NCBI GenBank assembly: GCA_964016885.1
Contig: OZ024744.1
Location: 117,428,001 to 117,492,000 of the forward strand
Reading direction: 5' to 3'
From: Eledone cirrhosa
Taxonomy: Eukaryota
DNA length: 64,000 nucleotides
Positions 8,556-64,000 of this stretch are shown in pieces. Numbering within the stretch: position 1 is the stretch's first letter; each line of letters opens with the position of its first letter. The notes under the pieces were generated by a model. That model was not told the origin of the DNA and made no database searches. It was given only the letters and a program-made list of their open reading frames with translations. Both the position numbers and the translations under genes were made by a program.

Positions 8556-8766
8556 TTCTATTAGTTTGCCGTAATAAATTTTTAACTGGAAAATTCGCCC
8601 CAAAAAGGGGCGAAAATAAATAAACTCAAAGTTTGACGACCAAGGCAAGGGGTTAACGTATATTACAGTATAAAAAAATTAATCAAAACTCACTTTTTGA
8701 GTAAGTAAATCCGACTCGGTAGCCGAGCTTGTTCACACACGTCAACACACGTCTCTCGTATACGAG

Positions 8767-11547: not shown

Positions 11548-12462
11548 TAGTATATATAGAGTAATGTAAATGTTATGTGAGGTAAAGCCCTTACTGGGAA
11601 AATATAATAGTATATATAGAGTAATGTAAATGTTATGTGAGGTATTATGTGAGGTAAAGTCTTTACTGTGAAAATACAATAGTATATATAGAGTAATGTA
11701 AATGTTATGTGAGATATTATGTGAGGTAAAGCCTTTACTGTGAAAATATAATAGTATATATAGAGTAATGTAAATGTTATGTGAGGTAAAGCCTTTACTG
11801 TGAAAATATAATATTATATATAGAGTAATGTAAATGTTATGTGAGGTAAAGCCTTTACTGTGAAAATACAATAGTATATATAGAGTAATGTAAATGTTAT
11901 GTGAGGTATTATGTGAGGTAAAGTCTTTACTGTGAAAATACAATAGTATATATAGAGTAATGTAAATGTTATGTGAGGTATTATGTGAGGTAAAGTCTTT
12001 ACTGTGAAAATACAATAGTATATATAGAGTAATGTAAATGTTATGTGAGATATTATGTGAGGTAAAGCCCTTACTGGGAAAATATAATAGTATATATAGA
12101 GTAATGTAAATGTTATGTGAGATATTATGTGAGGTAAAGCCATTACTGGGAAAATATAATAGTATATATAGAGTAATGTAAATGTTATGTGAGATATTAT
12201 GTGAGGTAAAGCCCTTACTGGGAAAATATAATAGTATATATAGAGTAATGTAAATGTTATGTGAGATATTATGTGAGGTAAAGCCTTTACTGTGAAAATA
12301 CAGTAGTATATATAGAGTAATGTAAATGTTATGTGAGGTATTATATGAGGTAAAGCCCTTACTGGGAAAATATAATAGTATATATAGAGTAATGTAAATG
12401 TTATGTGAGATATTATCTGAGGTAAAGCCCTTACTGGGAAAATATAATAGTATATATAGAGT
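11546..12462. repeat. 60/72-bp satellite, block 3
   Basis: Same unit, with CCCTTACTGGG variants. Confidence 0.95.
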
Positions 12463-12699
12463 GGTTTCTTTATTTGCCACTAGGGCACAAAAGGTAGGGA
12501 CAGATACAAGGGGGGAAGTTTACATATAATTAACGAGTACAAAAGTATAACAATGAAATAACAACAACAAACGAAGTCCTCAATAGGGAGGGGGCATTAA
12601 CATGTGTCGCACACACCCCGGAAAAAATGTGTAACCCTTCTCCTCAGGAGCACAAAGAGTAGGTGCTTCCCTCGTCTCCTCTTTTTCCTCTTCTTTCAC

Positions 12700-15600: not shown

Positions 15601-16137
15601 TCGATATCTATCGGCCAGGTCAAATCGGCCGATTAACCTTTTGAGGCTTTTACACCCCCCTCTATTGGCACATGCCCCTACATAGTCCCAACGTGCATCC
15701 AGGATACCATTCCAGTCCCCCACTAAAAGCAAGGAGCGGGACGTTCCCAGAAAAGTTTCCAGACGTTGGAAGTATTCCGGCCGCGCTGCCCAAAAAGGGG
15801 CGTACACAGCTATTAGTCTAAGGGCTCCACTTTCACTACTGCCGACGTCTAAAACCACCAGTCGACCCTCCGGGTCCAGGTGCACCTTCTGTATGGCGAG
15901 GCCCAGGTGTTTTCGCAGCAGAACGACAACTCCACCCCCACCCCCCGGTTGACAGAGAGATGCGAAGATCTCAAAGTCGTCGAAGAGGGGCGCCAGTTGG
16001 TGCTCGCTGCTGATCCTGGACTCGCAAATAGCCATTACATCCATTCTATGCGACCTGAGATCGTTTAAAAGTTTGCCTTGTTTCCAAGACAGTCCCAGGC
16101 CACGTACATTCAGACACCCAACTCTTATATCAGCCAT
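12700..16137 (-). pseudogene. Tx1 ORF2 (APE-RT-zf), ~1145 codons, one premature stop at 13447
   Basis: 896-aa ORF continues in frame after a TGA where copies 1 and 2 read W. Confidence 0.92.
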
Positions 16138-16158
16138 GTTGGTTAAAAGAGTAAGGAC

Positions 16159-17889: not shown

Positions 17890-18100
17890 TTCTATTAGTT
17901 TGCCGTAATAAATTTTTAACTGGAAAATTCGCCCCAAAAAGGGGCGAAAATAAATAAACTCAAAGTTTGACGACCAAGGCAAGGGGTTAACGTATATTAC
18001 AGTATAAAAAAATTAATCAAAACTCACTTTTTGAGTAAGTAAATCCGACTCGGTAGCCGAGCTTGTTCACACACGTCAACACACGTCTCTCGTATACGAG

Positions 18101-21100
18101 ATGTTATGTGAGATATTATGTGAGGTAAAGCCTTTACTGGGAAAATATAATAGTATATATAGAGTAATGTAAATGTTATGTGAGATATTATGTGAGGTAA
18201 AGCCTTTACTGTGAAAATACAATAGTATATATAGAGTAATGTAAATGTTATGTGAGGTATTATATGAGGTAAAGCCCTTACTGGGAAAATATAATAGTAT
18301 ATATAGAGTAATGTAAATGTTATGTGAGATATTATGTGAGGTAAAGCCCTTACTGGGAAAATATAATAGTATATATAGAGTAATGTAAATGTTATGTGAG
18401 ATATTATGTGAGGTAAAGCCTTTACTGTGAAAATATAATAGTATATATAGAGTAATGTAAATGTTATGTGAGATATTATGTGAGGTAAAGCCTTTACTGT
18501 GAAAATACAATAGTATATATAGAGTAATGTAAATGTTATGTGAGGTATTATGTGAGGTAAAGACTTTACTGTGAAAATACAATAGTATATATAGAGTAAT
18601 GTAAATGCTATGTGAGGTAAAGCCTCTACTGGGAAAATACAATAGTATATATAGAGTAATGTAAATGTTATGTGAGATATTATGTGAGGTAAAGCCTTTA
18701 CTGTGAAAATACAATAGTATATATAGAGTAATGTAAATGCTATGTGAGGTAAAGCCTCTACTGGGAAAATACAATAGTATATATAGAGTAATGTAAATGT
18801 TATGTGAGATATTATGTGAGGTAAAGCCTTTACTGTGAAAATACAATAGTATATATAGAGTAATGTAAATGTTATGTGAGATATTATGTGAGGTAAAGAC
18901 TTTACTGTGAAAATACAATAGTATATATAGAATAATGTAAATGTTATGTGAGGTATTATGTGAGGTAAAGCCTTTACTGTGAAAATATAATAGTATATAT
19001 AGAGTAATGTAAATGTTATGTGAGATATTATGTGAGGTAAAGCCTTTACTGTGAAAATACAATAGTATATATAGAGTAATGTAAATGCTATGTGAGGTAA
19101 AGCCTCTACTGGGAAAATACAATAGTATATATAGAGTAATGTAAATGTTATGTGAGATATTATGTGAGGTAAAGCCTTTACTGTGAAAATACAATAGTAT
19201 ATATAGAGTAATGTAAATGTTATGTGAGATATTATGTGAGGTAAAGACTTTACTGTGAAAATACAATAGTATATATAGAATAATGTAAATGTTATGTGAG
19301 GTATTATGTGAGGTAAAGCCTTTACTGTGAAAATACAATAGTATATATAGAGTAATGTAAATGTTATGTGAGGTATTATATGAGGTAAAGCCCTTACTGG
19401 GAAAATATAATAGTATATATAGAGTAATGTAAATGTTATGTGAGATATTATGTGAGGTAAAGCCCTTACTGGGAAAATATAATAGTATATATAGAGTAAT
19501 GTAAATGTTATGTGAGATATTATGTGAGGTAAAGCCTTTACTGTGAAAATATAATAGTATATATAGAGTAATGTAAATGTTATGTGAGATATTATGTGAG
19601 GTAAAGCCTTTACTGTGAAAATACAATAGTATATATAGAGTAATGTAAATGTTATGTGAGGTATTATGTGAGGTAAAGACTTTACTGTGAAAATACAATA
19701 GTATATATAGAGTAATGTAAATGCTATGTGAGGTAAAGCCTCTACTGGGAAAATACAATAGTATATATAGAGTAATGTAAATGTTATGTGAGATATTATG
19801 TGAGGTAAAGCCTTTACTGTGAAAATACAATAGTATATATAGAGTAATGTAAATGCTATGTGAGGTAAAGCCTCTACTGGGAAAATACAATAGTATATAT
19901 AGAGTAATGTAAATGTTATGTGAGGTATTATGTGAGGTAAAGACTTTACTGTGAAAATACAATAGTATATATAGAGTAATGTAAATGCTATGTGAGGTAA
20001 AGCCTCTACTGGGAAAATACAATAGTATATATAGAGTAATGTAAATGTTATGTGAGATATTATGTGAGGTAAAGCCTTTACTGTGAAAATACAATAGTAT
20101 ATATAGAGTAATGTAAATGTTATGTGAGATATTATGTGAGGTAAAGACTTTACTGTGAAAATACAATAGTATATATAGAATAATGTAAATGTTATGTGAG
20201 GTATTATGTGAGGTAAAGCCTTTACTGTGAAAATATAATAGTATATATAGAGTAATGTAAATGTTATGTGAGATATTATGTGAGGTAAAGCCTTTACTGT
20301 GAAAATACAATAGTATATATAGAGTAATGTAAATGCTATGTGAGGTAAAGCCTCTACTGGGAAAATACAATAGTATATATAGAGTAATGTAAATGTTATG
20401 TGAGATATTATGTGAGGTAAAGCCTTTACTGTGAAAATACAATAGTATATATAGAGTAATGTAAATGTTATGTGAGATATTATGTGAGGTAAAGACTTTA
20501 CTGTGAAAATACAATAGTATATATAGAATAATGTAAATGTTATGTGAGGTATTATGTGAGGTAAAGCCTTTACTGTGAAAATACAATAGTATATATAGAG
20601 TAATGTAAATGCTATGTGAGGTAAAGCCTCTACTGGGAAAATACAATAGTATATATAGAGTAATGTAAATGTTATGTGAGGTATTATGTGAGGTAAAGAC
20701 TTTACTGTGAAAATACAATAGTATATATAGAGTAATGTAAATGTTATGTGAGGTATTATGTGAGGTAAAGACTTTACTGTGAAAATACAATAGTATATAT
20801 AGAGTAATGTAAATGTTATGTGAGATATTATGTGAGGTAAAGCCTTTACTGTGAAAATACAATAGTATATATAGAGTAATGTAAATGTTATGTGAGATAT
20901 TATGTGAGGTAAAGCCTTTACTGTTAAAATACAATAGTATATATAGAGTAATGTAAATGTTATGTGAGGTAAAGTCTTTACTGTGAAAATACAATAGTAT
21001 ATATAGAGTAATGTAAATGTTATGTGAGGTAAAGCCTCTACTGGGAAAATACAATAGTATATATAGAGTAATGTAAATGCTATGTGAGGTAAAGCCTCTA

Positions 21101-46684: not shown

Positions 46685-47310
46685 GTGTTAGACTAGGATG
46701 TGTGTTTTGTTCTTGAACAAAACACTTCATTTCACATTACTCCAGTATACTACAGTGGAGGTATGTAGTGGCCTAGTGGTAAGGGTGTTAGACTAGGATG
46801 TGTGTTTTGTTCTTGAACAAAACACTTCATTTCACATTACTCCAGTATACTACAGTGGAGGTATGTAGTGGCCTAGTGGTAAGGGTGTTAGACTAGGATG
46901 TGTGTTTTGTTCTTGAACAAAACACTTCATTTCACATTACTCCAGTATACTACAGTGGAGGTATGTAGTGGCCTAGTGGTAAGGGTGTTAGACTAGGATG
47001 TGTGTTTTGTTCTTGAACAAAACACTTCATTTCACATTACTCCAGTATACTAGTGGAGGTATGTAGTGGCCTAGTGGTAAGGGTGTTAGACTAGGATGTG
47101 TGTTTTGTTCTTGAACAAAACACTTCATTTCACATTACTCCAGTATACTACAGTGGAGGTATGTAGTGGCCTAGTGGTAAGGGTGTTAGACTGGGTTGTG
47201 TGTTTTGTTCTTGAACAAAACACTTCATTTCACATTACTCCAGTATACTACAGTGGAGGTATGTGGTTGCCTAGAGGTAAGGGTGTTAGACTGGGTTGTG
47301 TGTTGTGTTC
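46685..47310 (+). repeat. 100-bp tandem array derived from a tRNA-SINE head (A box kept, B box lost)
   Basis: GACTAGGATG at 46691, 46791, 46891 and 46991; the unit has GTGGCCTAGTGGTAAGG and CTTGAACAAAACACTTCATTTCACATT, homologous to SINE 27516. Confidence 0.85.
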
Positions 47311-48009
47311 GTAAAATGTAAGTTTCCTTGTTGGATTGCTTATTGACATAGACGTGAGGGAAGGTCCCTCTTCTATTTACCATCTTTGTATTTACAATAT
47401 TCCTTTCGTCATATCATCAATTCCAGCAGCATGGTGTATAAATGTTATTGAGACACGAGTAACATAATAATGACTTCAACAGCAGACATTAGAGATGAAA
47501 TGTATGTTTATTTTGTTGTAGCACAAATAATTGTTTCTACTTTAGGCACAAGGCCAGCAATAACCCAGTGCATTACTGCTACTTTATTTTATCGACCCCG
47601 TAAGGATGAAAGGCAAAGTCAACCTCGGCGGGATTTGAACTTAGATCGTAAAGGGACGTAACTATGCTGCAAAGCATGGCGTCCGACCCTCTACCGATAC
47701 TGCCAATCCACAGCATAATGTTGGTCAACTTGCATAGCTGAAGTTACACATAAAAATGAGGTTACAAAAGGGAATGTGCAATTGTGCCGGAAAGCCGGCA
47801 GGCTAAGGTGCAAAATCTCACCGTCACATGTTGTACGTGTTGCTGGTTCGAAGTTCCTGGTGCGAGAGAGTTATTCTTCAAATCTTTTCGGGTAATTTCT
47901 CCCTCAGGGCGCATAGGGATACATCCTCTTCTACTGGCACTGATTGGCTGAGCTGAGCCAAATCACGCACAGAGAATGTATATGAGCCCGCGGAATGTAG
48001 GTCACTACA
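47311..48009 (-). repeat. 3' LTR of the minus-strand element (contains a SINE insertion)
   Basis: Starts TGTAGTGACC right after the PPT, has AGCCAATCAG (CCAAT-like), and ends in sequence shared with 57339-57419. Confidence 0.68.
47530..47710 (-). mobile_element. tRNA-derived SINE inserted in the LTR
   Basis: Near-identical to 34398-34582. Confidence 0.85.
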
Positions 48010-48856
48010 ATACCCCTCTTCTAGACGGAAGTCGATACGGATTATTGAATCAGCAAGAACAAATGCTGAAAGAGCACATCAGTTTAAAAAAAATAATTGA
48101 GCAGAAGGCTGCATGCAAGAAAAAAAATGAGGCACTACGGGCCGTGTTGAGCCGCTGTGTCAAATGACTAGCTGTTTTGTAGTTTATGCCTGACCACCAA
48201 AGGTCTAACAAAAACGGATAAAGTCTGACATGGGCGAAGTTGCTGTTCTTGCATTAAATGTTAATGGTAAGTGTTGTACCAGTAGCTGTGGACGAAGCTA
48301 TTATGGTAGTTTACCAGTGCTGGCAAGAAGATGATGGGTAGGCGAGAAAATGTTGGCCTCCCAGATGTATTGCCGAATGTGCTAGGGAGCCAGGAAAAAA
48401 TGGCTGGTTGCTTTGAAAAGAAAAAAAAAGCAAGATTAATCTGGAGGTGGGTTGCAGTGTATATTCCATAATTCGGGCGAATCCACAGAAGTGGTGGAAA
48501 GGGATCTCGCAGAATATTACGTTTGAAGAACATGTACCAAGAACAACACGTTGGTGTGTGACAAAGAAGTGTGTGCATATGCAAGCATGCAAAACAGCAA
48601 AGAATGTGAATGAACAAAAACCATGAGCAAGCAAATAGCAAAAGAGCACAAAACAGGTAAATGCATTCTACAAAGAAATATGTGAATGTAACAAACTGAT
48701 AATTCAAAGTGAATATAAGGGAGCAGAGAAATTAATGATCAATGATAAGTTCAAAGTTTTTCAAAGTCAAATAGTTCACACATCACCAGTGTACAGACTT
48801 TCTGACACTAGTTCTATCTGAAAACTGAAAAAGAAGTTTGTTAATGCCACTCGGGG

Positions 48857-48925
48857 TTAGATGTATATTGTTTTTGAGAGTTTTCGTGGCCATACTACTG
48901 TCCTGCCACCTCGTGTGACAAAAGG
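48857..48925 (-). pseudogene. Gypsy Pol/integrase extreme C-terminal remnant (repeated in each unit)
   Basis: PFVTRGGRTVVWPRKLSKTIYI* aligns with TTTCSGRTVHWPRKLCSNIN* at 62210-62272, the end of the + strand Gypsy pol. Confidence 0.72.
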
Positions 48926-49085
48926 TTGTGTTGCTTGTTGTTAAAGCAAAGTCAATGAATCTTCTGTAGAGTCGCAGTCGAGCGTTGAAGAACCCAGAGT
49001 CACCAATATGGCAGCCACGTCTGACGACATAATAGTGAGAAAGCTAATGTCTTAATTTCTCGAGTCCTTGTGGTAACGAGACAGA

Positions 49086-49820
49086 ATGTCTGATTTAACC
49101 AGTTCTACCATATGGGCTGTGACAGCTGCAGGTCGCGGGAAAATAAAATTCAGTTTTTTGAGCAAGACTACCAAGGAATTCGATATTTTAAGTGACACTT
49201 CCTTCCAACCCCAGAAAAGAACCATATTCTCAGGAGGGGATATAAATGCTTCATATACTTTTATAAATACCAAATCCAATACCCAAGAGATATTACCCAA
49301 GCATCTTCTTCACCTCATGGTTAGGTACTGCCAGAAATATTTGGTGTTTGACATCAACGATGATTTGCGAAAGTATGATTTTCTTAACCAGAAGAGTTCT
49401 GTAAGTCCAGCCGATTTTTTTACGATCAATGAGGACTCCAGCTTCCCGACTCCGACAGCAGCCGATTCCACACCCAATCAACACCACGGCTTACCTCTGT
49501 ACATCGTAACATTGTATAAAGTAGAGAACGCAGGCATGAGCCTAGAAGTAGGAGAATATAAGCAGAGTATAGTCAAAAGTTTCAATAATGACAGGATGAC
49601 CCATCCATATCGACACACACATGACATGCTCACAAACGGATCATTAAGCCACATTGTTAAAAATGATCAGATTTTTCAGATCATGGCCGCAATGGACTAC
49701 TTTCTGTTCTATTATAAGGAGCACGAGCTGTCTTTACTGAGAGGCACAGTCTTAACGAGATATGAAGGTATGCATATAGTTACCACAGAGAATGTAGGTC
49801 ACTACAATACCCCCTCCTAG
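49086..49820 (+). CDS. Endogenous rhabdovirus-like nucleoprotein (N), N-terminal ~235 aa, copy 1
   Basis: LPLYIVTLYKV...EYKQSI...NDQIFQIMAAMDYFLFYYKEHELSLLRGTVLTRY versus VSV N as recalled, LPLYLLGLYRV...EYRKKL...NDSNYTKIVAAVDMFFHMFKKHECASFRYGTIVSRF; similar distance from the start Met. Confidence 0.82.
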   Translation: MSDLTSSTIWAVTAAGRGKIKFSFLSKTTKEFDILSDTSFQPQKRTIFSGGDINASYTFINTKSNTQEILPKHLLHLMVRYCQKYLVFDINDDLRKYDFLNQKSSVSPADFFTINEDSSFPTPTAADSTPNQHHGLPLYIVTLYKVENAGMSLEVGEYKQSIVKSFNNDRMTHPYRHTHDMLTNGSLSHIVKNDQIFQIMAAMDYFLFYYKEHELSLLRGTVLTRYEGMHIVTTENVGHYNTPS

Positions 49821-50881
49821 ACAGAAGTCGATACGGATTATCGAATCAGCAAGAACAAATGCTGAAAGAGCACATCAGTTTAAAAATAATAATTGAGCAG
49901 AAGGCTGCATGCAAGAAGAAAAATGATGCGCTAAGGGCCGTGTTGAGCGGCTGTGTCAAATGACTAGCTGTTTTGTAGTTTATACGTGACCACCAAAGGT
50001 CTAACAAAAACGGATAAAGTCTGATATGGGCGAAGTTGCTGTTCTTGCATTAAATGTTAATGGTAAGTGTTGTACCAGTAGCTGTGGACGAAGCTATTAT
50101 GGTAGTTTACCAGTGCTGGCAAGAAGATGATGGGTAGGCGAGAAAATGTTGGCCTCCCAGATGTATTGCCGAATGTGCTAGGGAGCCAGGAAAAAATGGC
50201 TGGTTGCTTTGAAAAGAAAAAAAAAGCAAGTTTAATCTGTAGGTGGGTTGCAGTGTAAATTCCATAATTCGGGCAAATCCACAGAAGTGGTGGAAAGGGA
50301 TCTCGCAGAATATTACGTTTGAAGAACATGTACTAAGAACAACACTTTGGTGTGTGACAAAGAAATGTGTGCATATGCAAGTATGCAAAACAGCAAAGAA
50401 TGTGAATGAACAAAAACCATGAGCAAGCAAATAACAAAAGAGCCCAAAACAAGTAAATGCATTCTACAAAGAAATATGTGAATGTAACATACTGATAATT
50501 CAAAGTGAATATAAGGGAGCAGAGAAATTAATGATCAATGATAAGTTCAAAGTTTTTCAAAGTCAAATAGTTCACACATCACCAGTGTACAGACTTTCTG
50601 ACACTAGTTCTATCTGAAAACTGAAAAAGAAGTTTGTTAATGCCACTAGGGGTTAGATGTATATTGTTTTTGAGAGTTTTCGTGGCCATTCTACCGTCCT
50701 GCCACCTCGTGTGACAAAAGGTTGTGTTGCTTGTTGTTAAAGCAAAGTCAATGAATCTTCTGTAGAGTCGCAGTCGAGCGTTGAAGAACCCAGAGTCACC
50801 AATATGGCAGCCACGTCTGACGACATAATAGTGAGAAAGCTAATGTCTTAATTTCTCGAGTCCATGTGGTAACGAGACAGA

Positions 50882-51616
50882 ATGTCTGATTTAACCAGTT
50901 CTACCATATGGGCTGTGACAGCTGCAGGTCGCGGGAAAATAAAATTCAGTTTTTTGAGCAAGACTACCAAGGAATTCGATATTTTAAGTGACACTTCCTT
51001 CCAACCCCAGAAAAGAACCATATTCTCAGGAGGGGATATAAATGCTTCATATACTTTTATAAATACCAAATCCAATACCCAAGAGATATTACCCAAGCAT
51101 CTTCTTCACCTCATGGTTAGGTACTGCCAGAAATATTTGGTGTTTGACATCAACGATGATTTGCGAAAGTATGATTTTCTTAACCAGAAGAGTTCTGTAA
51201 GTCCAGCCGATTTTTTTACGATCAATGAGGACTCCAGCTTCCCGACTCCGACAGCAGCCGATTCCACACCCAATCAACACCACGGCTTACCTCTGTACAT
51301 CGTAACATTGTATAAAGTAGAGAACGCAGGCATGAGCCTAGAAGTAGGAGAATATAAGCAGAGTATAGTCAAAAGTTTCAATAATGACAGGATGACCCAT
51401 CCATATCGACACACACATGACATGCTCACAAACGGATCATTAAGCCACATTGTTAAAAATGATCAGATTTTTCAGATCATGGCCGCAATGGACTACTTTC
51501 TGTTCTATTATAAGGAGCACGAGCTGTCTTTACTGAGAGGCACAGTCTTAACGAGATATGAAGGTATGCATATAGTTACCACAGAGAATGTAGGTCACTA
51601 CAATACCCCCTCCTAG
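50882..51616 (+). CDS. Endogenous rhabdovirus-like nucleoprotein fragment, copy 2
   Basis: Same 244-aa translation as copy 1. Confidence 0.82.
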   Translation: MSDLTSSTIWAVTAAGRGKIKFSFLSKTTKEFDILSDTSFQPQKRTIFSGGDINASYTFINTKSNTQEILPKHLLHLMVRYCQKYLVFDINDDLRKYDFLNQKSSVSPADFFTINEDSSFPTPTAADSTPNQHHGLPLYIVTLYKVENAGMSLEVGEYKQSIVKSFNNDRMTHPYRHTHDMLTNGSLSHIVKNDQIFQIMAAMDYFLFYYKEHELSLLRGTVLTRYEGMHIVTTENVGHYNTPS

Positions 51617-52677
51617 ACAGAAGTCGATACGGATTATCGAATCAGCAAGAACAAATGCTGAAAGAGCACATCAGTTTAAAAATAATAATTGAGCAGAAGG
51701 CTGCATGCAAGAAGAAAAATGATGCGCTAAGGGCCGTGTTGAGCGGCTGTGTCAAATGACTAGCTGTTTTGTAGTTTATACGTGACCACCAAAGGTCTAA
51801 CAAAAACGGATAAAGTCTGATATGGGCGAAGTTGCTGTTCTTGCATTAAATGTTAATGGTAAGTGTTGTACCAGTAGCTGTGGACGAAGCTATTATGGTA
51901 GTTTACCAGTGCTGGCAAGAAGATGATGGGTAGGCGAGAAAATGTTGGCCTCCCAGATGTATTGCCGAATGTGCTAGGGAGCCAGGAAAAAATGGCTGGT
52001 TGCTTTGAAAAGAAAAAAAAAGCAAGTTTAATCTGTAGGTGGGTTGCAGTGTAAATTCCATAATTCGGGCAAATCCACAGAAGTGGTGGAAAGGGATCTC
52101 GCAGAATATTACGTTTGAAGAACATGTACTAAGAACAACACTTTGGTGTGTGACAAAGAAATGTGTGCATATGCAAGTATGCAAAACAGCAAAGAATGTG
52201 AATGAACAAAAACCATGAGCAAGCAAATAACAAAAGAGCCCAAAACAAGTAAATGCATTCTACAAAGAAATATGTGAATGTAACAAACTGATAATTCAAA
52301 GTGAATATAAGGGAGCAGAGAAATTAATGATCAATGATAAGTTCAAAGTTTTTCAAAGTCAAATAGTTCACACATCACCAGTGTACAGACTTTCTGACAC
52401 TAGTTCTATCTGAAAACTGAAAAAGAAGTTTGTTAATGCCACTAGGGGTTAGATGTATATTGTTTTTGAGAGTTTTCGTGGCCATTCTACCGTCCTGCCA
52501 CCTCGTGTGACAAAAGGTTGTGTTGCTTGTTGTTAAAGCAAAGTCAATGAATCTTCTGTAGAGTCGCAGTCGAGCGTTGAAGAACCCAGAGTCACCAATA
52601 TGGCAGCCACGTCTGACGACATAATAGTGAGAAAGCTAATGTCTTAATTTCTCGAGTCCTTGTGGTAACGAGACAGA

Positions 52678-53412
52678 ATGTCTGATTTAACCAGTTCTAC
52701 CATATGGGCTGTGACAGCTGCAGGTCGCGGGAAAATAAAATTCAGTTTTTTGAGCAAGACTACCAAGGAATTCGATATTTTAAGTGACACTTCCTTCCAA
52801 CCCCAGAAAAGAACCATATTCTCAGGAGGGGATATAAATGCTTCATATACTTTTATAAATACCAAATCCAATACCCAAGAGATATTACCCAAGCATCTTC
52901 TTCACCTCATGGTTAGGTACTGCCAGAAATATTTGGTGTTTGACATCAACGATGATTTGCGAAAGTATGATTTTCTTAACCAGAAGAGTTCTGTAAGTCC
53001 AGCCGATTTTTTTACGATCAATGAGGACTCCAGCTTCCCGACTCCGACAGCAGCCGATTCCACACCCAATCAACACCACGGCTTACCTCTGTACATCGTA
53101 ACATTGTATAAAGTAGAGAACGCAGGCATGAGCCTAGAAGTAGGAGAATATAAGCAGAGTATAGTCAAAAGTTTCAATAATGACAGGATGACCCATCCAT
53201 ATCGACACACACATGACATGCTCACAAACGGATCATTAAGCCACATTGTTAAAAATGATCAGATTTTTCAGATCATGGCCGCAATGGACTACTTTCTGTT
53301 CTATTATAAGGAGCACGAGCTGTCTTTACTGAGAGGCACAGTCTTAACGAGATATGAAGGTATGCATATAGTTACCACAGAGAATGTAGGTCACTACAAT
53401 ACCCCCTCCTAG
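52678..53412 (+). CDS. Endogenous rhabdovirus-like nucleoprotein fragment, copy 3
   Basis: Same 244-aa translation as copy 1. Confidence 0.82.
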   Translation: MSDLTSSTIWAVTAAGRGKIKFSFLSKTTKEFDILSDTSFQPQKRTIFSGGDINASYTFINTKSNTQEILPKHLLHLMVRYCQKYLVFDINDDLRKYDFLNQKSSVSPADFFTINEDSSFPTPTAADSTPNQHHGLPLYIVTLYKVENAGMSLEVGEYKQSIVKSFNNDRMTHPYRHTHDMLTNGSLSHIVKNDQIFQIMAAMDYFLFYYKEHELSLLRGTVLTRYEGMHIVTTENVGHYNTPS

Positions 53413-54473
53413 ACAGAAGTCGATACGGATTATCGAATCAGCAAGAACAAATGCTGAAAGAGCACATCAGTTTAAAAATAATAATTGAGCAGAAGGCTGC
53501 ATGCAAGAAGAAAAATGATGCGCTAAGGGCCGTGTTGAGCGGCTGTGTCAAATGACTAGCTGTTTTGTAGTTTATACGTGACCACCAAAGGTCTAACAAA
53601 AACGGATAAAGTCTGATATGGGCGAAGTTGCTGTTCTTGCATTAAATGTTAATGGTAAGTGTTGTACCAGTAGCTGTGGACGAAGCTATTATGGTAGTTT
53701 ACCAGTGCTGGCAAGAAGATGATGGGTAGGCGAGAAAATGTTGGCCTCCCAGATGTATTGCCGAATGTGCTAGGGAGCCAGGAAAAAATGGCTGGTTGCT
53801 TTGAAAAGAAAAAAAAAGCAAGTTTAATCTGTAGGTGGGTTGCAGTGTAAATTCCATAATTCGGGCAAATCCACAGAAGTGGTGGAAAGGGATCTCGCAG
53901 AATATTACGTTTGAAGAACATGTACTAAGAACAACACTTTGGTGTGTGACAAAGAAATGTGTGCATATGCAAGTATGCAAAACAGCAAAGAATGTGAATG
54001 AACAAAAACCATGAGCAAGCAAATAACAAAAGAGCCCAAAACAAGTAAATGCATTCTACAAAGAAATATGTGAATGTAACAAACTGATAATTCAAAGTGA
54101 ATATAAGGGAGCAGAGAAATTAATGATCAATGATAAGTTCAAAGTTTTTCAAAGTCAAATAGTTCACACATCACCAGTGTACAGACTTTCTGACACTAGT
54201 TCTATCTGAAAACTGAAAAAGAAGTTTGTTAATGCCACTAGGGGTTAGATGTATATTGTTTTTGAGAGTTTTCGTGGCCATTCTACCGTCCTGCCACCTC
54301 GTGTGACAAAAGGTTGTGTTGCTTGTTGTTAAAGCAAAGTCAATGAATCTTCTGTAGAGTCGCAGTCGAGCGTTGAAGAACCCAGAGTCACCAATATGGC
54401 AGCCACGTCTGACGACATAATAGTGAGAAAGCTAATGTCTTAATTTCTCGAGTCCTTGTGGTAACGAGACAGA

Positions 54474-55208
54474 ATGTCTGATTTAACCAGTTCTACCATA
54501 TGGGCTGTGACAGCTGCAGGTCGCGGGAAAATAAAATTCAGTTTTTTGAGCAAGACTACCAAGGAATTCGATATTTTAAGTGACACTTCCTTCCAACCCC
54601 AGAAAAGAACCATATTCTCAGGAGGGGATATAAATGCTTCATATACTTTTATAAATACCAAATCCAATACCCAAGAGATATTACCCAAGCATCTTCTTCA
54701 CCTCATGGTTAGGTACTGCCAGAAATATTTGGTGTTTGACATCAACGATGATTTGCGAAAGTATGATTTTCTTAACCAGAAGAGTTCTGTAAGTCCAGCC
54801 GATTTTTTTACGATCAATGAGGACTCCAGCTTCCCGACTCCGACAGCAGCCGATTCCACACCCAATCAACACCACGGCTTACCTCTGTACATCGTAACAT
54901 TGTATAAAGTAGAGAATGCAGGCATGAGCCTAGAAGTAGGAGAATATAAGCAGAGTATAGTCAAAAGTTTCAATAATGACAGGATGACCCATCCATATCG
55001 ACACACACATGACATGCTCACAAACGGATCATTAAGCCACATTGTTAAAAATGATCAGATTTTTCAGATCATGGCCGCAATGGACTACTTTCTGTTCTAT
55101 TATAAGGAGCACGAGCTGTCTTTACTGAGAGGCACAGTCTTAACGAGATATGAAGGTATGCATATAGTTACCACAGAGAATGTAGGTCACTACAATACCC
55201 CCTCCTAG
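54474..55208 (+). CDS. Endogenous rhabdovirus-like nucleoprotein fragment, copy 4
   Basis: Same 244-aa translation as copy 1. Confidence 0.82.
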   Translation: MSDLTSSTIWAVTAAGRGKIKFSFLSKTTKEFDILSDTSFQPQKRTIFSGGDINASYTFINTKSNTQEILPKHLLHLMVRYCQKYLVFDINDDLRKYDFLNQKSSVSPADFFTINEDSSFPTPTAADSTPNQHHGLPLYIVTLYKVENAGMSLEVGEYKQSIVKSFNNDRMTHPYRHTHDMLTNGSLSHIVKNDQIFQIMAAMDYFLFYYKEHELSLLRGTVLTRYEGMHIVTTENVGHYNTPS

Positions 55209-56269
55209 ACAGAAGTCGATACGGATTATCGAATCAGCAAGAACAAATGCTGAAAGAGCACATCAGTTTAAAAATAATAATTGAGCAGAAGGCTGCATGC
55301 AAGAAGAAAAATGATGCGCTAAGGGCCGTGTTGAGCGGCTGTGTCAAATGACTAGCTGTTTTGTAGTTTATACGTGACCACCAAAGGTCTAACAAAAACG
55401 GATAAAGTCTGATATGGGCGAAGTTGCTGTTCTTGCATTAAATGTTAATGGTAAGTGTTGTACCAGTAGCTGTGGACGAAGCTATTATGGTAGTTTACCA
55501 GTGCTGGCAAGAAGATGATGGGTAGGCGAGAAAATGTTGGCCTCCCAGATGTATTGCCGAATGTGCTAGGGAGCCAGGAAAAAATGGCTGGTTGCTTTGA
55601 AAAGAAAAAAAAAGCAAGTTTAATCTGTAGGTGGGTTGCAGTGTAAATTCCATAATTCGGGCAAATCCACAGAAGTGGTGGAAAGGGATCTCGCAGAATA
55701 TTACGTTTGAAGAACATGTACTAAGAACAACACTTTGGTGTGTGACAAAGAAATGTGTGCATATGCAAGTATGCAAAACAGCAAAGAATGTGAATGAACA
55801 AAAACCATGAGCAAGCAAATAACAAAAGAGCCCAAAACAAGTAAATGCATTCTACAAAGAAATATGTGAATGTAACAAACTGATAATTCAAAGTGAATAT
55901 AAGGGAGCAGAGAAATTAATGATCAATGATAAGTTCAAAGTTTTTCAAAGTCAAATAGTTCACACATCACCAGTGTACAGACTTTCTGACACTAGTTCTA
56001 TCTGAAAACTGAAAAAGAAGTTTGTTAATGCCACTAGGGGTTAGATGTATATTGTTTTTGAGAGTTTTCGTGGCCATTCTACTGTCCTGCCACCTCGTGT
56101 GACAAAAGGTTGTGTTGCTTGTTGTTAAAGCAAAGTCAATGAATCTTCTGTAGAGTCGCAGTCGAGCGTTGAAGAACCCAGAGTCACCAATATGGCAGCC
56201 ACGTCTGACGACATAATAGTGAGAAAGCTAATGTCTTAATTTCTCGAGACCTTGTGGTAACGAGACAGA

Positions 56270-57055
56270 ATGTCTGATTTAACCAGTTCTACCATATGGG
56301 CTGTGACAGCTGCAGGTCGCGAGAAAATAGAATTCCGTTTGAGCAAGACTACCAAGGAATTCGATATTTTAAGTGACACTTCCTTCCAACCCCAGAAAAT
56401 AACCATATTCTCAGGAGGGGATATAAATGCTTCATATACTTTTATAAATACCAAATCCAATACCCAAGAGATATTACCCAAGCATCGTCTTCACCTCATG
56501 GTTAGGTACTGCCAGAAATATTTGGTGTTTGACATCAACGATGATTTGCGAAAGTATGATTTTCTTAACCAGAAGAGTTCTGTAAGTCCAGCCGATTTCT
56601 TCACGATCAATGAAGACACCAGCTTCCCGACTCCGACAGCAGCTGATTCCACACCCAATCAACACCACGGCTTACCTCTGTACATCGTAACATTGTATAA
56701 AGTAGAGAACGCAGGCATGAGCCTAGAAGTAGGAGAATATAAGCAGAGTATAGTCAAAAGTTTCAATAATGACAGGATGACCCATCCATATCGACACACA
56801 CATGACATGCTCACAAACGGATCATTAAGCCACATTGTTAAAAATGATCAGATTTTTCAGATCATGGCCGCAATGGATTATTTTTTATTCCATTATAAGG
56901 AGCACGAGCTGTCTTTACTGAGGAGAGGCACAGTCTTAACGCGATATGAAGGTATGCATATAGTTACCAGTGTGGTTTTGGGGTTTTTTTTTTTTGGTTT
57001 TTTTATAACGGTAGAGACGATAGAAGAGGTGAAGGCGTGGAAGTCAACAATATGA
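56270..57055 (+). CDS. Endogenous rhabdovirus-like nucleoprotein fragment, divergent copy 5
   Basis: Keeps the full RxGT spacing (LLRRGTVLTRY) and FLFHYKEHE; C-terminal extension differs from copies 1-4. Confidence 0.82.
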   Translation: MSDLTSSTIWAVTAAGREKIEFRLSKTTKEFDILSDTSFQPQKITIFSGGDINASYTFINTKSNTQEILPKHRLHLMVRYCQKYLVFDINDDLRKYDFLNQKSSVSPADFFTINEDTSFPTPTAADSTPNQHHGLPLYIVTLYKVENAGMSLEVGEYKQSIVKSFNNDRMTHPYRHTHDMLTNGSLSHIVKNDQIFQIMAAMDYFLFHYKEHELSLLRRGTVLTRYEGMHIVTSVVLGFFFFGFFITVETIEEVKAWKSTI

Positions 57056-57325
57056 TGTGTGGTGGTTGCGTCGGTAAGGCTATGAAGCTGCCATCTCACT
57101 ATTCCCTGTTGTTGGTTAGTGGTTAAACAATGTTGTCGCTGCTGCTGCTGCTGCTGCTGCCGTTGTTGTTGTTGTTGATTGTAGACAGGACCTGTCGCTA
57201 GCCATTTTGTAATTTCCTCGTGGCGAAAAGTTTTTGAAATACTGCTAATTTTTTTTTAAATTTTAAAAGGAATATTTTGTATTTTCGTAAATTGCACTGA
57301 ACAAAAAGGCTGCGTAAAATTCTTA

Positions 57326-57337
57326 CGTCGGTCACCA
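57326..57337 (-). promoter_or_regulatory. Primer-binding site of the minus-strand LTR element
   Basis: TGGTGACCGACG begins 1 nt after the LTR-terminal CA. Confidence 0.7.
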
Positions 57338-57338
57338 G

Positions 57339-57419
57339 TGTGGTAAAATGTATGTATGTATCATAATTGGATTGCTTATTGACATAGACGTGAGGGAAGG
57401 TCCCTCGTCTATTTACTAT
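57339..57419 (-). repeat. Remnant of the 5' LTR (U5 end), cut off by the + strand Gypsy
   Basis: Homologous to 47311-47383; abuts the TG of the next element's LTR. Confidence 0.68.
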
Positions 57420-58245
57420 TGTAGTGGCTGAGATGGTCGCTTGGCAACTAGCAGTTGCCTCCCCTTAACAACCCTTCAGAGAGCGGAGGTAAAAATACAT
57501 CCGGACACAGACGCAGGTTCACTCACTCTCTTTGGACCGCAGACATGAACAGACGTGGAAAGATTCGCTCCTCAAAATATTGACGTTGTAGGAAATTTAC
57601 TAAATTATCGCATTTAATAAAATGATTATTAGATTTGATTGTTCATTTATTTATTCAACAAAGAGAAACATCCCTTTCCTTTATCAACCCTGACGATAAA
57701 GAATGAAAACGTAGCCTATTTGAATTCGCCATTCGTTTTAACGGCAATGTGGAATGGCTTAACATTTGGAATGTTCGAATCACTTAGCGTAAGTCCATAA
57801 AATTCATAATATTCCATTTGTTGAAGCACGCATACAGACAAACACAAAAATACAACACAAAAAAAAATAATTAAAAAAAAAAAAAGGATTTCTCTGGATA
57901 TAGAATTTTGCTTTCAACATTATGTGGAAATTACAAATGGAGACTCAGATATTTTGTTTTCCCGCGTTCAGCTTGTCTTCTCCAACCCAGCCATCTGATT
58001 GGCTGCATCGTGCCACATGACGGCTTCTTCATCACGGACACATTTTTAAATCAGCCATCTTGGATTTTCTTACCATTAATTTTCATAGAAAATGATTTTT
58101 TTTATTATTAAAATTTTCTTTAGAATATTTTTTTTAAAGAAAAAAAATTAGTATTTCAAAACGGCTACCACCAATTACCAGCAATCAGCAGCAACACAAG
58201 GCTAACTATTGACCAACACCAAAAAGTCATCAAATACGTGGCACC

Positions 58246-59037
58246 ATGAGTCAACATCATTTGCCGTCCTTCGCAGGCGACATCAAGTTGTGGTTTGCGC
58301 AGCTGGAATGTTTCTTCGAATTGACGAAGACAAAGGAACAGCATAAGCTGAAGGTCCTGATCAATGGCCTACCTGTTTCCTTGGCATTCTCGGTGAAGGA
58401 CGTTTTGACGGATTTAGACGCCGACGTTACCTACGGCTCATTAAAGAACGAAATTCTTCGCAGAAATACCAAGTCGGTAGAGAGCCGTTTTCAGGAGTTG
58501 TTGGAGGATGCTCAAATGGGTGACAGGAAGCCGAGCTCCTATTTGCGACATTTGCGGGAGTTGAGCGACTCCCAGGGGATTGACACCCCCTTCATAAAGC
58601 AGCTTTTTTTTTTCACGTCTACCACCAAGTGCGCAAAGGATATTGGTCAATAGTTTAGAGAAGGATTCATTAGAGCAACTTGCCGCGTCCGCGGATAAGA
58701 TACTTGAGGTGGACTCGAACAGCAGTCAGCATAATCCTTATGTGGCTTCAGCTTCCCCCCCCCCCCCCCACGCAGTTCTTCTGTGGCCGACAGCAAACTG
58801 TTGGAGTTGATTGAAGCTCTCACCAAAAAGGTAGAAGATTTGACGGTACATCACAGAGAGCCTTCTCAACGTTTGAGGTACCGTTCGCCGCCGTCCTCTA
58901 TTCATCGCCAGTACTACAACGCAGACAACAATAATTCTTCGTTGTGTTGGTACCATGCTAACTTCGGCAATAGGGCACAACGTTGTCGCACGCCCTGTAA
59001 TTACAAGAAATCGGGAAACGCAAAGCAGAGCCACTAG
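58246..59037 (+). pseudogene. Gypsy gag, frameshifted at homopolymer runs
   Basis: LWFAQLE, MGDRKPSSYLRHLREL, CWYHANFGNRAQRCRTPC. Confidence 0.85.
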
Positions 59038-59079
59038 GGGCGGCTAGTGAACTCTGGGAAAACCGACCGAACCACCATC

Positions 59080-62000
59080 TTTTCGTATACGACCTGCGGT
59101 CAAAAAAATGTTTCCTTGTCGATACTGGCGCGTCGCTGAGTATTTGGCTAGTCAGTTATCTCAAAAAAAGCCCAGCTGAATCAAATATAAATCTACGAGC
59201 AGTCAACCACACGGCCATTCGAACGTACGGGCAAATTTCGCTTCCTCTTCGGTTAAAAAATTTGCAGCGTGATTTGAGGTGGAAGTTTACTATCGCCGAC
59301 TTGCCATACGCCATTTCGGGAGCGGATTTTCTCCACCATTTTTCCTTGTTGGTGGACATTCGCAGACAACGCTTTTTGATGCTAAAACAGGCCTTTCTTT
59401 CGAGGATTCAGAGCCGGATGTCGCCACTGTCAGCCCTTCCTTTTTCTTGGCTGAAGTGGGCAACCAGTATCAAAGCCTGCTACATTCATTCCCTCAGTTG
59501 ACGCAGGGAAAGTTACGAATAACTAGCCCGGATCATGCGATTGAACACTTCATATCCACTACAGGTCCACCTGTTTTCTCACGTCCTCGAAGATTATCTA
59601 CAGAGAAGTTGAAAGCTGCACGTCTTGAATTCGACCACATGCTGGAATTGGGAATAATTCGGCGCTCCACAAGTCCTTGGGCATCGCCTCTACATATGGT
59701 ACCTAGATCTTCTGGGGATTGGAGACCGACGGGTGACTACCGACGCTTAAACGCGATTACTGTGCCTGACCGTTATCCAATCCCGCATTTGCAGGATTTT
59801 GCATCGTCATTGCAGGGTTGCAGAATCTTTTCTAAGCTTGATTTGATCCGCGCTTATAATCAAATTCCGGTTAACAAGGAGGATATCCCAAAGAGTGCTA
59901 TTGCCACTCCTTTCGGATCATTCGAGTTCCTCACTATGCCTTTCGGCCTTAGAAATGCTGCAAGTACCTTCCAACGATTTATGGATGATGTTACTCGGGG
60001 CCTGGATTTTGTGTACACGTATATCGATGACGTGTTGATTGCTAGTTCTTCCCCTCAGCAGCATTCAAAGCATCTGGATCTCGTATTTCGTCGTTTACAG
60101 AGATATAATTGTTTCTACTTTTAGCACAAGGCCAGCAATTATTCTAGTGTATTACTGGTACTTTATTTTATCGACCCGTTAAGGATGAAAGGCAAAGTTA
60201 ACCTCGGCGGGTCTTGAACTCAGTCCGTAAACAGAGATATAATGTTCGTATTAATGCTTCCAAGTGTGTTTTCGGCTCGACTTCACTAACATTTTTAGGC
60301 CATCTGATTGACGCTGATGGTATTCGACCTCTTCCTGAGAAGGTTAAGGCAGTATCGGGTTTGCCTCCGCCAAGTTCACTGCGACAATTGCGTCAATTCC
60401 TGGGCCTTGTACATTTTTATAGGCGATTCGTACCTGGTTGTTCCAAATTGCTGTTCTCGTTGACAGAGATTTTTAAGGGTTGCCGGCGTAAGAATATGGA
60501 CATTTCCTTAAATAAAACGCAGCTTGATGATTTTAAAAAAGTGAAAAAGGCGTTAGCGAACGCGTCTTTGCTCGCCCACCCAGTACCCAACGCCGAGCTA
60601 TCGCTCTGTGTTGATGCTTCGGATAGCGCCGTGGGCGCAGTCTTACAGCAGAAGTGTGATGGGGTACAGCAACCACTCGAGTTCTTTTCGAGGAAGTTAA
60701 AGCCTGCCGAAACTCGCTATAGCACCTTTGGAAGGGAGCTATTAGCAATTTATTTATCAGTGAAACATTTTGCTCATGTACTTGAAGGTAGAACATTCAC
60801 CATTTTCACTGATCATAAACCTTTGACGTTTGCTCTTCGAACTAAAGCAGTCAAATACTCGCCCAGAGAAACGAGACATCTGGACTTCATCTCACAGTTC
60901 ACGAACGACATTCAACATATTCCGGGTTCTTTGAATACAGCGGCCGATGCGCTGTCTCGCCTGCCGATCGCATCGATTTCGTCTTCCGAGGAGATAGATT
61001 TACATCGAATGGCAGCTGCCCAACCCACTCTCGAATCGTTGGATGTTACATCGCCAGAGTTTGTACATTGCAAACTGAAATACATTCCGATCTCAACTGC
61101 TGACGGACAAATACTGTGTGAGGTTTCGTTGGACTCACCACGACCTCTAGTCCCAGTGGAACATCGACGAACTGCGTTTCTCGCTTTACATGGCATTTCT
61201 CACCCAGGAGTATCAGCCTCAGTAAAACTCATAACAGCCAGATTTTTCTGGCCTGGTATGAGACGTGACATTGCTGCTTGGTGTCGTTCCTGTGTCGCTT
61301 GCCAACAAGCGAAAGTTCATAGACATGTTAAGGCTCCTCTCGGAACCTTCACCTGCCCCGATGCAAGATTTCGTCACATTCATGTGGACATCGTCGGCCC
61401 GTGGCCGGTTAGTCGTGGTTTTTCGTATCTTTTGACGATTGTTGACCGTTTTTCGCGTTGGCCTGAAGCCGTCCCTATAACAGATATCACCGCCGAAACC
61501 ACAGCCCGTACCCTCGTATCTTCGTGGATCGCTCGTTTCGGTGTACCAACCACCATAACAACGGATCGTGGTCGTCAATTTGAGTCTAACCTCTTCCGAG
61601 AGCTAACCCAAATCCTGGGGGCTACTCGAATAAGAACCACGGCTTACCACCCAGCCTCAAACGGAATGGTGGAAAGATTCCACAGGCAGCTCAAAGCCTC
61701 CGTAAGGGCTTCCATGGACTCTTCACGTTGGAGTTGTATTGTTGGGTATTCGGTCGACGGTAAAGGTGGACCTTGGGTTCTCCTCTGCCGAATTAGTTTA
61801 TGGTACGCCTCTGGCGTTACTGGGGCAAATGCTGGCCCCTTTTGACCTGACTTCGCAGGACCCCGCTTCCTACGTGTCCCGGCTTCACTCTTATTTCAAG
61901 GATCTACCACCGATGGGCACTAGGAAGCAGACTAAAAACTGCCGTCCCAAGGGATATTGCCTTGTGGACCCATGTGTTCGTTAGAGACGACGCCGTGAGA

Positions 62001-62272
62001 CCCCCTCTTCAACGGCCGTACTCTGGACCCTATCGTGTGCTTGCTCGCACAGACAAACATTTCACACTGGACATTCGGGGTTCCAGGGAAACGGTTTCCA
62101 TTGATCGTCTCAAACGAGCAAACCTGGACAATGACACTTGAAACTCAAATGCCCCCCTCTTTTTCTTTGCCACACAGGCCTATTCCCCCCCCCCCCATTA
62201 ACACACAGAACTACGACCTGTTCTGGGCGAACGGTGCATTGGCCCCGTAAGCTATGCAGTAATATAAACTGA
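59080..62272 (+). pseudogene. Gypsy pol (protease, RT, RNase H, integrase), with frameshifts and a SINE insertion
   Basis: FLVDTGA; [26 protein letters not shown]; DASD, RELLAI, TDHKPL; HPG...[28 protein letters not shown]. Confidence 0.92.
60110..60230 (-). mobile_element. 5'-truncated SINE inserted in Gypsy RT with 13-bp TSD
   Basis: ACAGAGATATAAT at 60097-60109 and 60231-60243. Confidence 0.88.
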
Positions 62273-62987
62273 ATTATTATTTTTTTTTTTTGTTTTGTTT
62301 TTTTCCTTCCAATTGTTTTTGTTGTACATTGCATTTTGTTACTTTTGGATTCTTGACTGCCTACGGCAGTGTCAATATATTGTATTTTGCGTAACATTAC
62401 GACTGTTGTCAATTCTGACACAGACCTTTTTTTTTAGTGCATTTTTATAACTATGCTACATATGGCATTTTCATTGCCTAGCAAAACATTTTTTTTCTTG
62501 TTTATCGCATCTGGGGCCCCTTTATTGCGAAGAGTGTTATCTTTTCATGCATTTTGCATCTTTTACTGTACGTTTTTTTTTTTTTTTTTTCTGTGTTAAT
62601 GCTTGCAGACATGAACCTATTTATTATTTCTTTTTAATTTGTTGATACATTCTTCTACATTTTGTAAACTACCTTCGCTTCATTGTTAACGATTTTTCGA
62701 CAAAAAATCTGCTCCGAGGTGAATGTAGTGGCTGAGATGGTCGCTTGGCAACTAGCAGTTGCCTCCCCTTAACAACCCTTCAGGGAGCGGAGGCAAAAAT
62801 ACACCCGGACACAGCCACAGGTTCACTCACTCTTTTTGGACCACGGACATGAACAGACGTGGAAAGATCCGCTCCTCAAAATATTGACGTTGTAGGAAAT
62901 TTACTAAATTATTGCATTAAATAAAATGATTGTTAGACTTGATTGTGCATTTATTTATTCGACAAAGAGAAACATCCCTTTTCTTTA

Positions 62988-63353
62988 GAGGTATGTGGTG
63001 GCCTAGTGGTAACGATGTTAGACTGGGTTGTGTGTTGTGTTCTTGAACAAGACACTTCATTTCACATTACTACAGTATACTACTGTAGAGGTATATTGTG
63101 GCCTAGTGGTAAGGGTGTTAGACTGGGTTGTGTGTTGTGTTCTTGAACAAAACACTTCATTTCACATTACTACAGTATACTACATGGAGGTATGTGGGAC
63201 CTAATGGTAAGGGTGTTAGACTGGGTTGTGTGTTGTGTTCTTGAACTAAACACCTCATTTCACATTACTCCAGTATACTACAGTGGAGGTATGTGGTGGC
63301 CTAGTGGTAAGGGTGTTAGACTGAGTTGTGTGTTGTGTTCTTGAACAAAACAC
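62988..63353 (+). repeat. SINE-head-derived ~100-bp tandem array (same family as 46685-47310)
   Basis: Same unit and orientation. Confidence 0.85.
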
Positions 63354-64000
63354 TAGAGAGGGTGGTTAAGGAACCTGGCAAGGATGGGGCCATGATCAAC
63401 TTGGATCAATCCAAAGCATTCGATAGGGTCGACCATCGGTACCTGGCGGCGGTCCTCGGGGCAGCCGGTTTCGAGCCCGTTTTCAGGGGTTGGCTCGCAG
63501 CAATGTACAGCGACATCTGCTCAGTTGTGTGGGTGAACGGTCACCTGTCGCAGCCGTTCAGCATCATGCGCTCAGTCCGCCAGGGTTGTCCCCTCTCGTC
63601 CCTCTTGTACGTATTGGCTCTCGAGCCGTTACTGCACAAACTGGGGGCGATGAGGGGCGTCCCACGCGAACTAGGATGCGGGAAATCCGAGTCGGCTTAC
63701 GCCGACGACGTCACCGTAGTGGTGTCGAGCACCAGGCACGTCCAGATGCTCGGCACCGCTCTCAAGGAATACGAAGCGGTGACAGGAGCAAAGATAAACC
63801 AGGAAAAGTCGGTGGGCTTGCAGCTCGGCACCTGGAGAGGCAAGTCCATGCCGTCCGACAGCGTCGTGGGGTGTTGGACGGACGGACCGGTTAAATTGCT
63901 TGGGGTCTGGTTCGGAGAAAAACTGGAACGAGGTGACGAGCAGGGTGGCCTCCCTCACCCAGAAATGGGCTGAGAGGAAGCTGTCCCTGAAAGGCCGGAC
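63354..64000 (+). mobile_element. Tx1-clade LINE, 5'-truncated RT fragment of a second subfamily, runs off the window
   Basis: INLDQSKAFDRVDHRYL, RQGCPLS, AYADD; similar to but clearly diverged from copies 1-3. Confidence 0.88.

Follow-up and report, generated by a model that had tools for sequence, protein, structure and literature searches.

How an octopod chromosome came to carry five tandem open copies of part of a rhabdovirus nucleoprotein gene, and what they might do there, is the question raised by a stretch of the Eledone cirrhosa genome (GenBank assembly GCA_964016885.1, contig OZ024744.1, forward-strand positions 117,428,001 to 117,492,000; these 64,000 nucleotides are the window, and positions are counted from its first base). 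A preliminary description had noted five tandem open reading frames (ORFs) with a period of 1,796 bp, four with identical 244-residue translations and one divergent copy of 261 residues, and had read them as a tandem array of nucleoprotein (N) fragments. The ORF listing and a repeat comparison bear out the arrangement, and the translations are as described. The array is not a gene standing by itself, however: the viral sequence is antisense cargo within a long terminal repeat (LTR) element, the tails and stop codons of the ORFs are transposon-derived, and the array belongs to a family of ten N loci.

The rhabdoviral identity of the ORFs, first proposed from sequence motifs, was confirmed by profile search. 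Both ORF types exceed the curated cut-off of 26 bits for Pfam Rhabdo_ncap (PF00945), copy 1 with 33.5 bits (E=3e-8) and copy 5 with 40.6 bits (E=2e-10), and longer sister loci elsewhere in the genome score 77-81 bits against the same family. All 12 PDB sequence matches at E<=1 are nucleoproteins, headed by N of vesicular stomatitis virus (VSV; E=2e-4), and a profile built from 14 stretches of the family finds N of VSV and of lyssavirus at E ~1e-12. Structure prediction with an alignment gave a low-confidence model (predicted local distance difference test, pLDDT, 46; the single-sequence fold, at 29, was unusable), with which a fold search of the PDB and a viral library returned rhabdovirus N for all top 10 hits in each, none at E<=0.001. 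Searches of large protein sets retrieved no viral N and only three matches in all, from Octopus bimaculoides, Argonauta hians and one entry without a name. The two named sources agree with the cephalopod host suggested in the preliminary description and point to a probable octopod. None of 1,138 candidates was a longer or fused homologue, which is weak evidence, and no matches came from 4 pattern hits in viral contigs or 71 in metagenome contigs.

The ATG had been suggested to be the authentic viral start, and three other captures indeed align from the same methionine. Viral similarity extends from this first codon to residue 232; the end had been placed near residue 235, which is not correct, while the accompanying loss of the C-lobe stands, since sister loci run ~190 residues further. 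With most of the C-lobe missing, the fragment lacks the pair of lobes that forms the RNA cleft of N. The last 12 residues of copies 1-4, the last 29 of copy 5 and the stop codons are transposon sequence; the copy 5 tail was also considered as genuine N sequence and rejected, as it is part of the LTR element. In copies 1-4 the most conserved motif is one codon short; it is full length in 10/10 other rows covering it.

The carrier emerged from the 1.1 kb between the ORFs, a high-copy host repeat with at least 86 matches (40 scored of 2,639 candidates). Three empty copies with flanks define an LTR element of ~2.9 kb with LTRs of 512 bp, here called element A. A tblastn search of a 2,885-bp empty copy gave no significant match to gag or pol (best E=0.6); element A is non-autonomous, its clade being assigned from the primer-binding site only. 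That site (57326-57337, minus strand) is of the tRNA-Trp type seen in CsRn1-like elements and shares its first 8 bases with the published motif (PMC2582038), with which it was compared in place of an aligned tRNA gene; no tRNA genes were found within the 64-kb window.

Because of its LTR ends, primer site and purine tract, element A is placed on the minus strand. The closest empty copy has ~41 bp where the window carries N, and the uninterrupted site recurs in empty copies (7 anchor hits, 5 distinct copies, 18 loci scanned); N is therefore an antisense insert in element A. The viral gene is joined to host chromosomal DNA through repeat junctions on a chromosome-scale contig, with the Ty3/gypsy LTR association that characterizes integrated sequences of non-retroviral RNA viruses (NIRVS, also termed nrEVEs, endogenous viral elements of non-retroviral origin). 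Domesticated nucleoproteins of the endogenous bornavirus-like nucleoprotein (EBLN) type are marked by insertion in the manner of a long interspersed nuclear element (LINE), with a poly(A) tail and target duplication, and by an orthologous open frame that is kept across species and expressed. No such LINE-type insertion is seen here, as both N ends join LTR-element sequence. That the spacer might be a viral G or env gene in decay was considered and rejected, since six frames of 47715-49085 hold no Pfam family above cut-off and the DNA is host repeat.

Five head-to-tail units of 1,796 bp span 47993-56969, an onset ~1.1 kb ahead of that first assigned, and transposon makes up 61% of each unit. 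On the left, the 3' LTR of element A (47311-48009, minus strand; 92% match to the empty-copy LTR) has an eroded outer end and contains a repeat resembling a short interspersed nuclear element (47525-47714), which recurs at 22102, 34393 and 60105. The element A interior of unit 1 follows (48010-49085, minus strand; purine tract ~48013-48020) and leads into the plus-strand N ORF copy 1 (49086-49820, 244 residues), whose viral part, 49086-49781, gives way to element A sequence, an LTR start with purine tract, that supplies the tail and stop. The module of unit 2 (49786-50881) comprises a shortened LTR start (49786-49806), an intact purine tract (49810-49817) and interior; those of units 3, 4 and 5 lie at 51582-52677, 53378-54473 and 55174-56269, all on the minus strand. 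Between them stand the plus-strand ORF copies 2 (50882-51616), 3 (52678-53412) and 4 (54474-55208), and last copy 5 (56270-57055, plus strand, 261 residues), with a viral part at 56270-56965 and an element A tail.

Beyond the array, the 5' interior of element A from primer-binding site to N insert (56970-57325, minus strand; 92% match to an empty copy) is followed by the primer site and a 5' LTR remnant (57339-57419, minus strand) cut off by a second element. Positions 56966-56976, the 11 bases that follow viral sequence in copy 5, equal the primer-site/LTR boundary of element A (57334-57344), 7 of them being also explained by the empty site. In the window the ends of element A, where the 4-bp target-site duplication of the CsRn1 clade would be expected, are eroded. 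Other element A copies (L047, L049, L055) sit in TA or TATG microsatellites, which suggests a target preference.

The second element, element B (57420-62987, plus strand), is a decayed CsRn1-like Ty3/gypsy element with LTR pieces at 57420-57683 and 62724-62987 (94%), gag at 58246, reverse transcriptase (RT) at 59639 and, at 58945-58998, the CX2HX9CX3C Gag signature (CHCC motif) of the CsRn1 clade. It cuts the 5' LTR of element A, and its family is the likely source of the RT for capture. The entire block is embedded in a 100-bp satellite, which forms its left border (46685-47310, no strand assigned) and resumes at 62988-63354. Directly after this satellite lies a LINE-like RT frame (63320-64000) that by inspection resembles LINE-like frames at 10-11.5 kb; a 7-kb duplication (2721-9707 and 12062-19077, 97.6%) holds a LINE-like element with a 72-bp satellite, and a third partial copy lies between.

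Comparison of the units indicates how the array grew. Over 735 nt, N copies 1-3 are identical and copy 4 differs by one silent change, and among the four later spacers any two differ at 0-4 of 1,061 nt. Against copy 1, copy 5 carries 16 substitutions and has two gaps of 3 nt; between the first and second spacers there are 28 substitutions and a single 1-nt gap over 1,093 columns (1,092 nt). The outer parts, namely first spacer and last N, are thus ~2.5% divergent and everything between is near-identical, so the array probably arose by one older duplication, after which the middle unit recently expanded four-fold. Read in element direction, each internal junction runs from purine tract to shortened LTR start to N boundary, and the N boundary resembles the primer site at 6/7 bases, which hints that a strand transfer went astray in reverse transcription; these junctions are equally compatible with unequal exchange or a circular intermediate.

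Near-identity of this degree (0-4 nt among units 2-5) also raises the prospect that the N insertion is real but its four near-identical units were inflated in assembly, or that only the assembled animal carries copy 5, which we regard as highly improbable. Reads were checked over 55095-57420 in four runs, three of contigs and one of restriction-site-associated DNA (RAD). N of the copy-1-4 type with its N-to-LTR junction is present in contigs of 2/3 contig runs (two samples from one study, one of which may be the assembly's own source); the third represents another organism and gave scraps only. The RAD run contributed 2 reads with one start, both carrying copy-1-4 alleles. Because no piece spans the array and the 3' end of copy 5 (bin 56889-56966) has depth 0 in 4/4 runs, the count of five is without independent support. 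Against inflation stand the junction in two samples and the outer spacer and outer N, which are distinct sequences, and short-read contigs in any case collapse repeats and lose rare variants.

Is this capture an isolated event? N occurs at ten genome loci including the array (19 matches of 26 candidates), two further searches adding none, and the nine others share 56-78% protein identity with it. Judged by junction and context, the ten loci represent at least eight captures. For most comparisons across captures the synonymous sites are saturated and replacement divergence (dN) is 0.08-0.34; a single group, comprising four loci that derive from three captures, shows synonymous divergence (dS) of 0.19-0.68 and dN of 0.01-0.04 between captures. 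Divergence between captures is viral divergence, and therefore several genotypes were caught. Most sister loci are truncated, frameshifted or stopped, and one other locus has a 393-codon open frame. Where captures have a clear LTR carrier, N is antisense in four of five and sense in one; three captures lack a clear element. This DNA record points to an undescribed rhabdovirus group that repeatedly reached octopod germlines.

Some of these carriers moved after capture. The loci designated C4 and C5, on different chromosomes, share both N/element junctions, begin exactly at the LTR start and have unrelated flanks. Loci C2 and C219 likewise share LTR start and N junction, with 96% identity over 2.2 kb and unrelated flanks, and at C219 the copy is delimited by LTR ends that lie in TA runs. 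Common junctions with unrelated flanks imply that N-carrying elements were copied to new sites. The N cargo of the window has no daughter copy: its 5 exact junction matches all lie within the array, and its N-specific 695 bp are unique to this locus.

Further features were observed at the sister loci. Several show what look like signals for mRNA start and poly(A) addition and a junction between the N and P genes. At L054 and L055, not in the array, N is followed by an A-run, a short spacer and an AAC-type start, resembling the junction layout expected of an Alpharhabdovirinae-like (dimarhabdovirus) source, but the next ORF has no Pfam match. L055:3082-6701 (G000:C219) is an LTR-bounded element in a TA run with partial N, gene junction, a P-like frame and further frames without Pfam match. 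At L054, on C2, a 102-bp direct repeat (4061-4162 and 6356-6457, 99%), too long for an integrase target duplication, flanks the N-P piece. The left edges at L052 and L053, with different flanks, end near LTR position 117 of 512, and their other ends are precise LTR starts. The C2a N (L007:2508-3677) lies upstream of frames that are presumably Helitron-like, and the C25 N (L015:2230-2745) near one presumably of a mariner-like transposase.

Copies that share junctions should diverge neutrally, and they depart from this expectation. Silent changes make up 9/16 differences between copies 1 and 5 of the window, 13/24 between C4 and C5, and 6/14 between C2 and C219. Pooled, the 28/54 silent changes compare with 13.1 expected at the spacer transition rate (P=1.2e-5), and the excess persists at the harshest rate tried (P=5e-4). 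The C2/C219 pair alone is not significant (P=0.10); for C4/C5, third positions account for 21/32 changes (P=2e-4). The silent rate of the window pair, 6.3%, exceeds that of the spacer (2.6%), which exceeds the pair's replacement rate (1.3%), giving a ratio of replacement to silent change (pN/pS) of 0.20. Changes in this pair also cluster (P=0.002; spacer P=0.12), with 9 silent and 2 replacement changes inside patches and 0 and 5 outside (Fisher P=0.005, the patches having been picked post hoc). The silent excess may reflect selection on protein, patch-wise recombination with RNA of related strains, or repeated same-junction capture from different isolates. A recombination test found that 3 of the 30 C4/C5 differences covered by two other captures have the same two alleles, which is chance level (P=0.62), and C4/C5 differences do not cluster significantly (P=0.10), so a model in which cargo is refreshed from viral RNA gains no support from these two tests.

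Selection on protein would be expected if the ORFs encoded a counterfeit, that is, a sense-strand, N-lobe-only protein that poisons nucleocapsid assembly of the cognate virus, an idea that reportedly has precedent (PMC6166632). Such selection would explain the low dN/dS. The authentic start codon, the five open frames, the pN/pS between copies 1 and 5, gaps that are both 3 nt long and the 393-codon frame at another locus are in keeping with it. Yet nucleocapsid assembly relies on subunit contacts, with RNA held between the two lobes of N (PMC7472042), and here the C-lobe is almost wholly absent. The ORF moreover runs against the promoter of the element, and the dominant-negative protein envisaged in the preliminary description becomes less likely with the best-conserved motif one codon short in each of the four amplified copies. 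Nor is protein selection needed for the silent excess, because the C4/C5 pair shows it without a viral start and with one member frameshifted. In simulation, 55% of ORFs of this size stay stop-free after 16 random changes, so the open frames are weak evidence, and they speak mostly for youth rather than for a protein that works. Overall, we consider a counterfeit protein unlikely.

To an origin as a non-retroviral endogenous viral element (EVE) made by LTR-retrotransposon machinery, with a role at the RNA level, we assign an even probability. The 5' 232 N codons of an undescribed rhabdovirus replace ~41 bp of element A, in antisense, as the window shows. Replacement may have occurred in a germline cell by a template switch onto viral RNA, with RT acting in trans from a CsRn1-like Ty3/gypsy element of the element B type. 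The resulting unit of LTR start, antisense N, interior and purine tract was then repeated head to tail, presumably by the duplication and expansion set out above. Transcription in element direction would yield RNA complementary to viral N mRNA, a putative source of antisense RNA or, by analogy with mosquitoes, of PIWI-interacting RNA (piRNA), and the array would raise the dose of such RNA.

Several observations count against an RNA-level role. Most of the 5' LTR has been deleted and element B interrupts it, so that the promoter of element A may be gone. The window is rich in other tandem expansions, and amplification need not have been selected. Neither a purely RNA-level nor a neutral model predicts the silent excess, which in the window pair alone reaches P=0.005 at the spacer transition rate and P=0.013 at the N pair's own. 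Four antisense captures of five are too few to establish a bias, and mosquito EVEs mostly have the same direction as the nearest LTR element, unlike here (10.1101/127498).

The same origin could also have left an inert passenger, silent and multiplied by ordinary unequal exchange in a region of satellites and transposons, with nothing selected, a rather doubtful but weightier possibility than a counterfeit protein. The lack of detectable gag or pol in element A, the erosion of both its ends, the damaged 5' LTR, the freedom with which the region expands repeats, the decay of most sister loci and the absence of a daughter copy of the N cargo are all in keeping with it; the pooled silent excess of the same-junction pairs is left unaccounted for.

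More speculatively, and in our judgement improbably, non-autonomous octopod LTR elements could be mobile, updatable antisense cassettes against viruses, refreshed by template switching with the RNA of later strains. Viral RNA would be captured and spread by re-transposition or tandem growth, units 2-5 each rebuilding the purine-tract/LTR-start junction. If true, this would explain silent-rich patches between identical junctions, even where a viral start is absent, and would amount to a heritable antiviral memory that tracks the virus.

Other genes of such viruses were also encountered. A large rhabdovirus-like L piece (L051:1-4900; G000:C3:130160001 onward) with several broken frames and an internal repeat lies antisense to an adjoining Ty3/gypsy element with element-B pol and a 901-codon open pol frame. 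It shares 52% identity with a sigmavirus and 51% with vesiculoviruses, ranges from 45 to 52% over its best 120 hits, all named ones being rhabdovirus-like, and matches VSV L in the PDB at 460 bits and the next rhabdovirus L at 364 bits. In a 67-sequence tree without outgroup, for which 66 of the 120 listed hits were picked by hand, it forms the longest branch (1.01). It lies on another contig and may or may not stem from the virus that supplied the array N. Scrambled short L pieces at L046 (G000:C27:16994401-16997577), 57-92% identical to it, represent a second L capture, and mononegaviral L matches at L044, L042 and L045 (G000:C3:37.50 Mb; C23:16.22 Mb) are unlike it and probably derive from other virus lineages. 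For rhabdovirus G, one weak match of 6 candidates was found (fusion domain, E=0.006), at L068:1465-1701 (G000:C2:14.13 Mb), near an element-B piece.

The kind of element is known, molluscs included; what sets this case apart are the non-coding LTR carrier with its antisense cargo, its re-mobilization, its tandem growth and the silent-site excess. To account for the last, antisense cargo would have to be under selection or to recombine with live virus, and within the literature searched each of these would be a novelty among such elements. Since one element is available both empty and filled, its capture junctions can be read to the base and the template-switch model can be tested. Rey-Campos et al. 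2023 reportedly describe a rhabdovirus in cephalopod metatranscriptomes, which may bear on novelty, and the array is a possible host-genome source for that signal. The preliminary description knew of no such array in molluscs. Cephalopod rhabdoviral EVEs are not described in the titles or abstract openings surveyed; novelty is lowered by reports of a probable gastropod N EVE (PMC6085071) and of duplication after integration in mosquitoes (PMC5497376).

Among relatives of the sequence itself, N here gives profile and PDB matches to N of vesiculoviruses, sigmaviruses and lyssaviruses, which, with their L, are the reference group (PF00945, PF00946). UniProt A0A0L8FVJ3 from O. bimaculoides (40% identity), auto-annotated as a rhabdovirus nucleocapsid domain, and GAB1603531.1 from A. 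hians (56%) belong to the same N family and represent separate, more distant viral lineages.

Among known systems, Aedes NIRVS/nrEVEs are alike in that N fragments lie next to Ty3/gypsy elements, N is over-represented, some are duplicated and they are a source of antisense piRNAs. Rhabdoviral EVEs are enriched at Ty3/gypsy elements in mosquitoes (10.1101/127498), where EVEs yield antisense 1U piRNAs (PMC5497376) and one has an antiviral effect (PMC7522710); octopus piRNAs have been profiled as well (PMC12479628). Eledone differs from Aedes in its cephalopod host, in cargo placed, mostly antisense, inside a non-coding LTR element, between its primer site and purine tract, and in P-like sequence at one locus pair, whereas none was detected in PMC5497376. 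The probable gastropod rhabdoviral N EVE (PMC6085071) is likewise from a mollusc, confined to N and present as DNA, and its negative-sense RNA and antisense 5'U small RNAs match what is predicted here; in contrast to the array, it is not described as tandem and was placed near lyssavirus N. Anakin (PMC7642597) similarly holds a gene of a negative-strand virus within the LTRs of BEL-Pao elements and spread by retrotransposition. There, a chuvirus glycoprotein, captured once or a few times, has been proposed to be the env-like gene of elements that are autonomous, whereas octopod elements without coding capacity have taken up N, mostly antisense, in at least eight captures.

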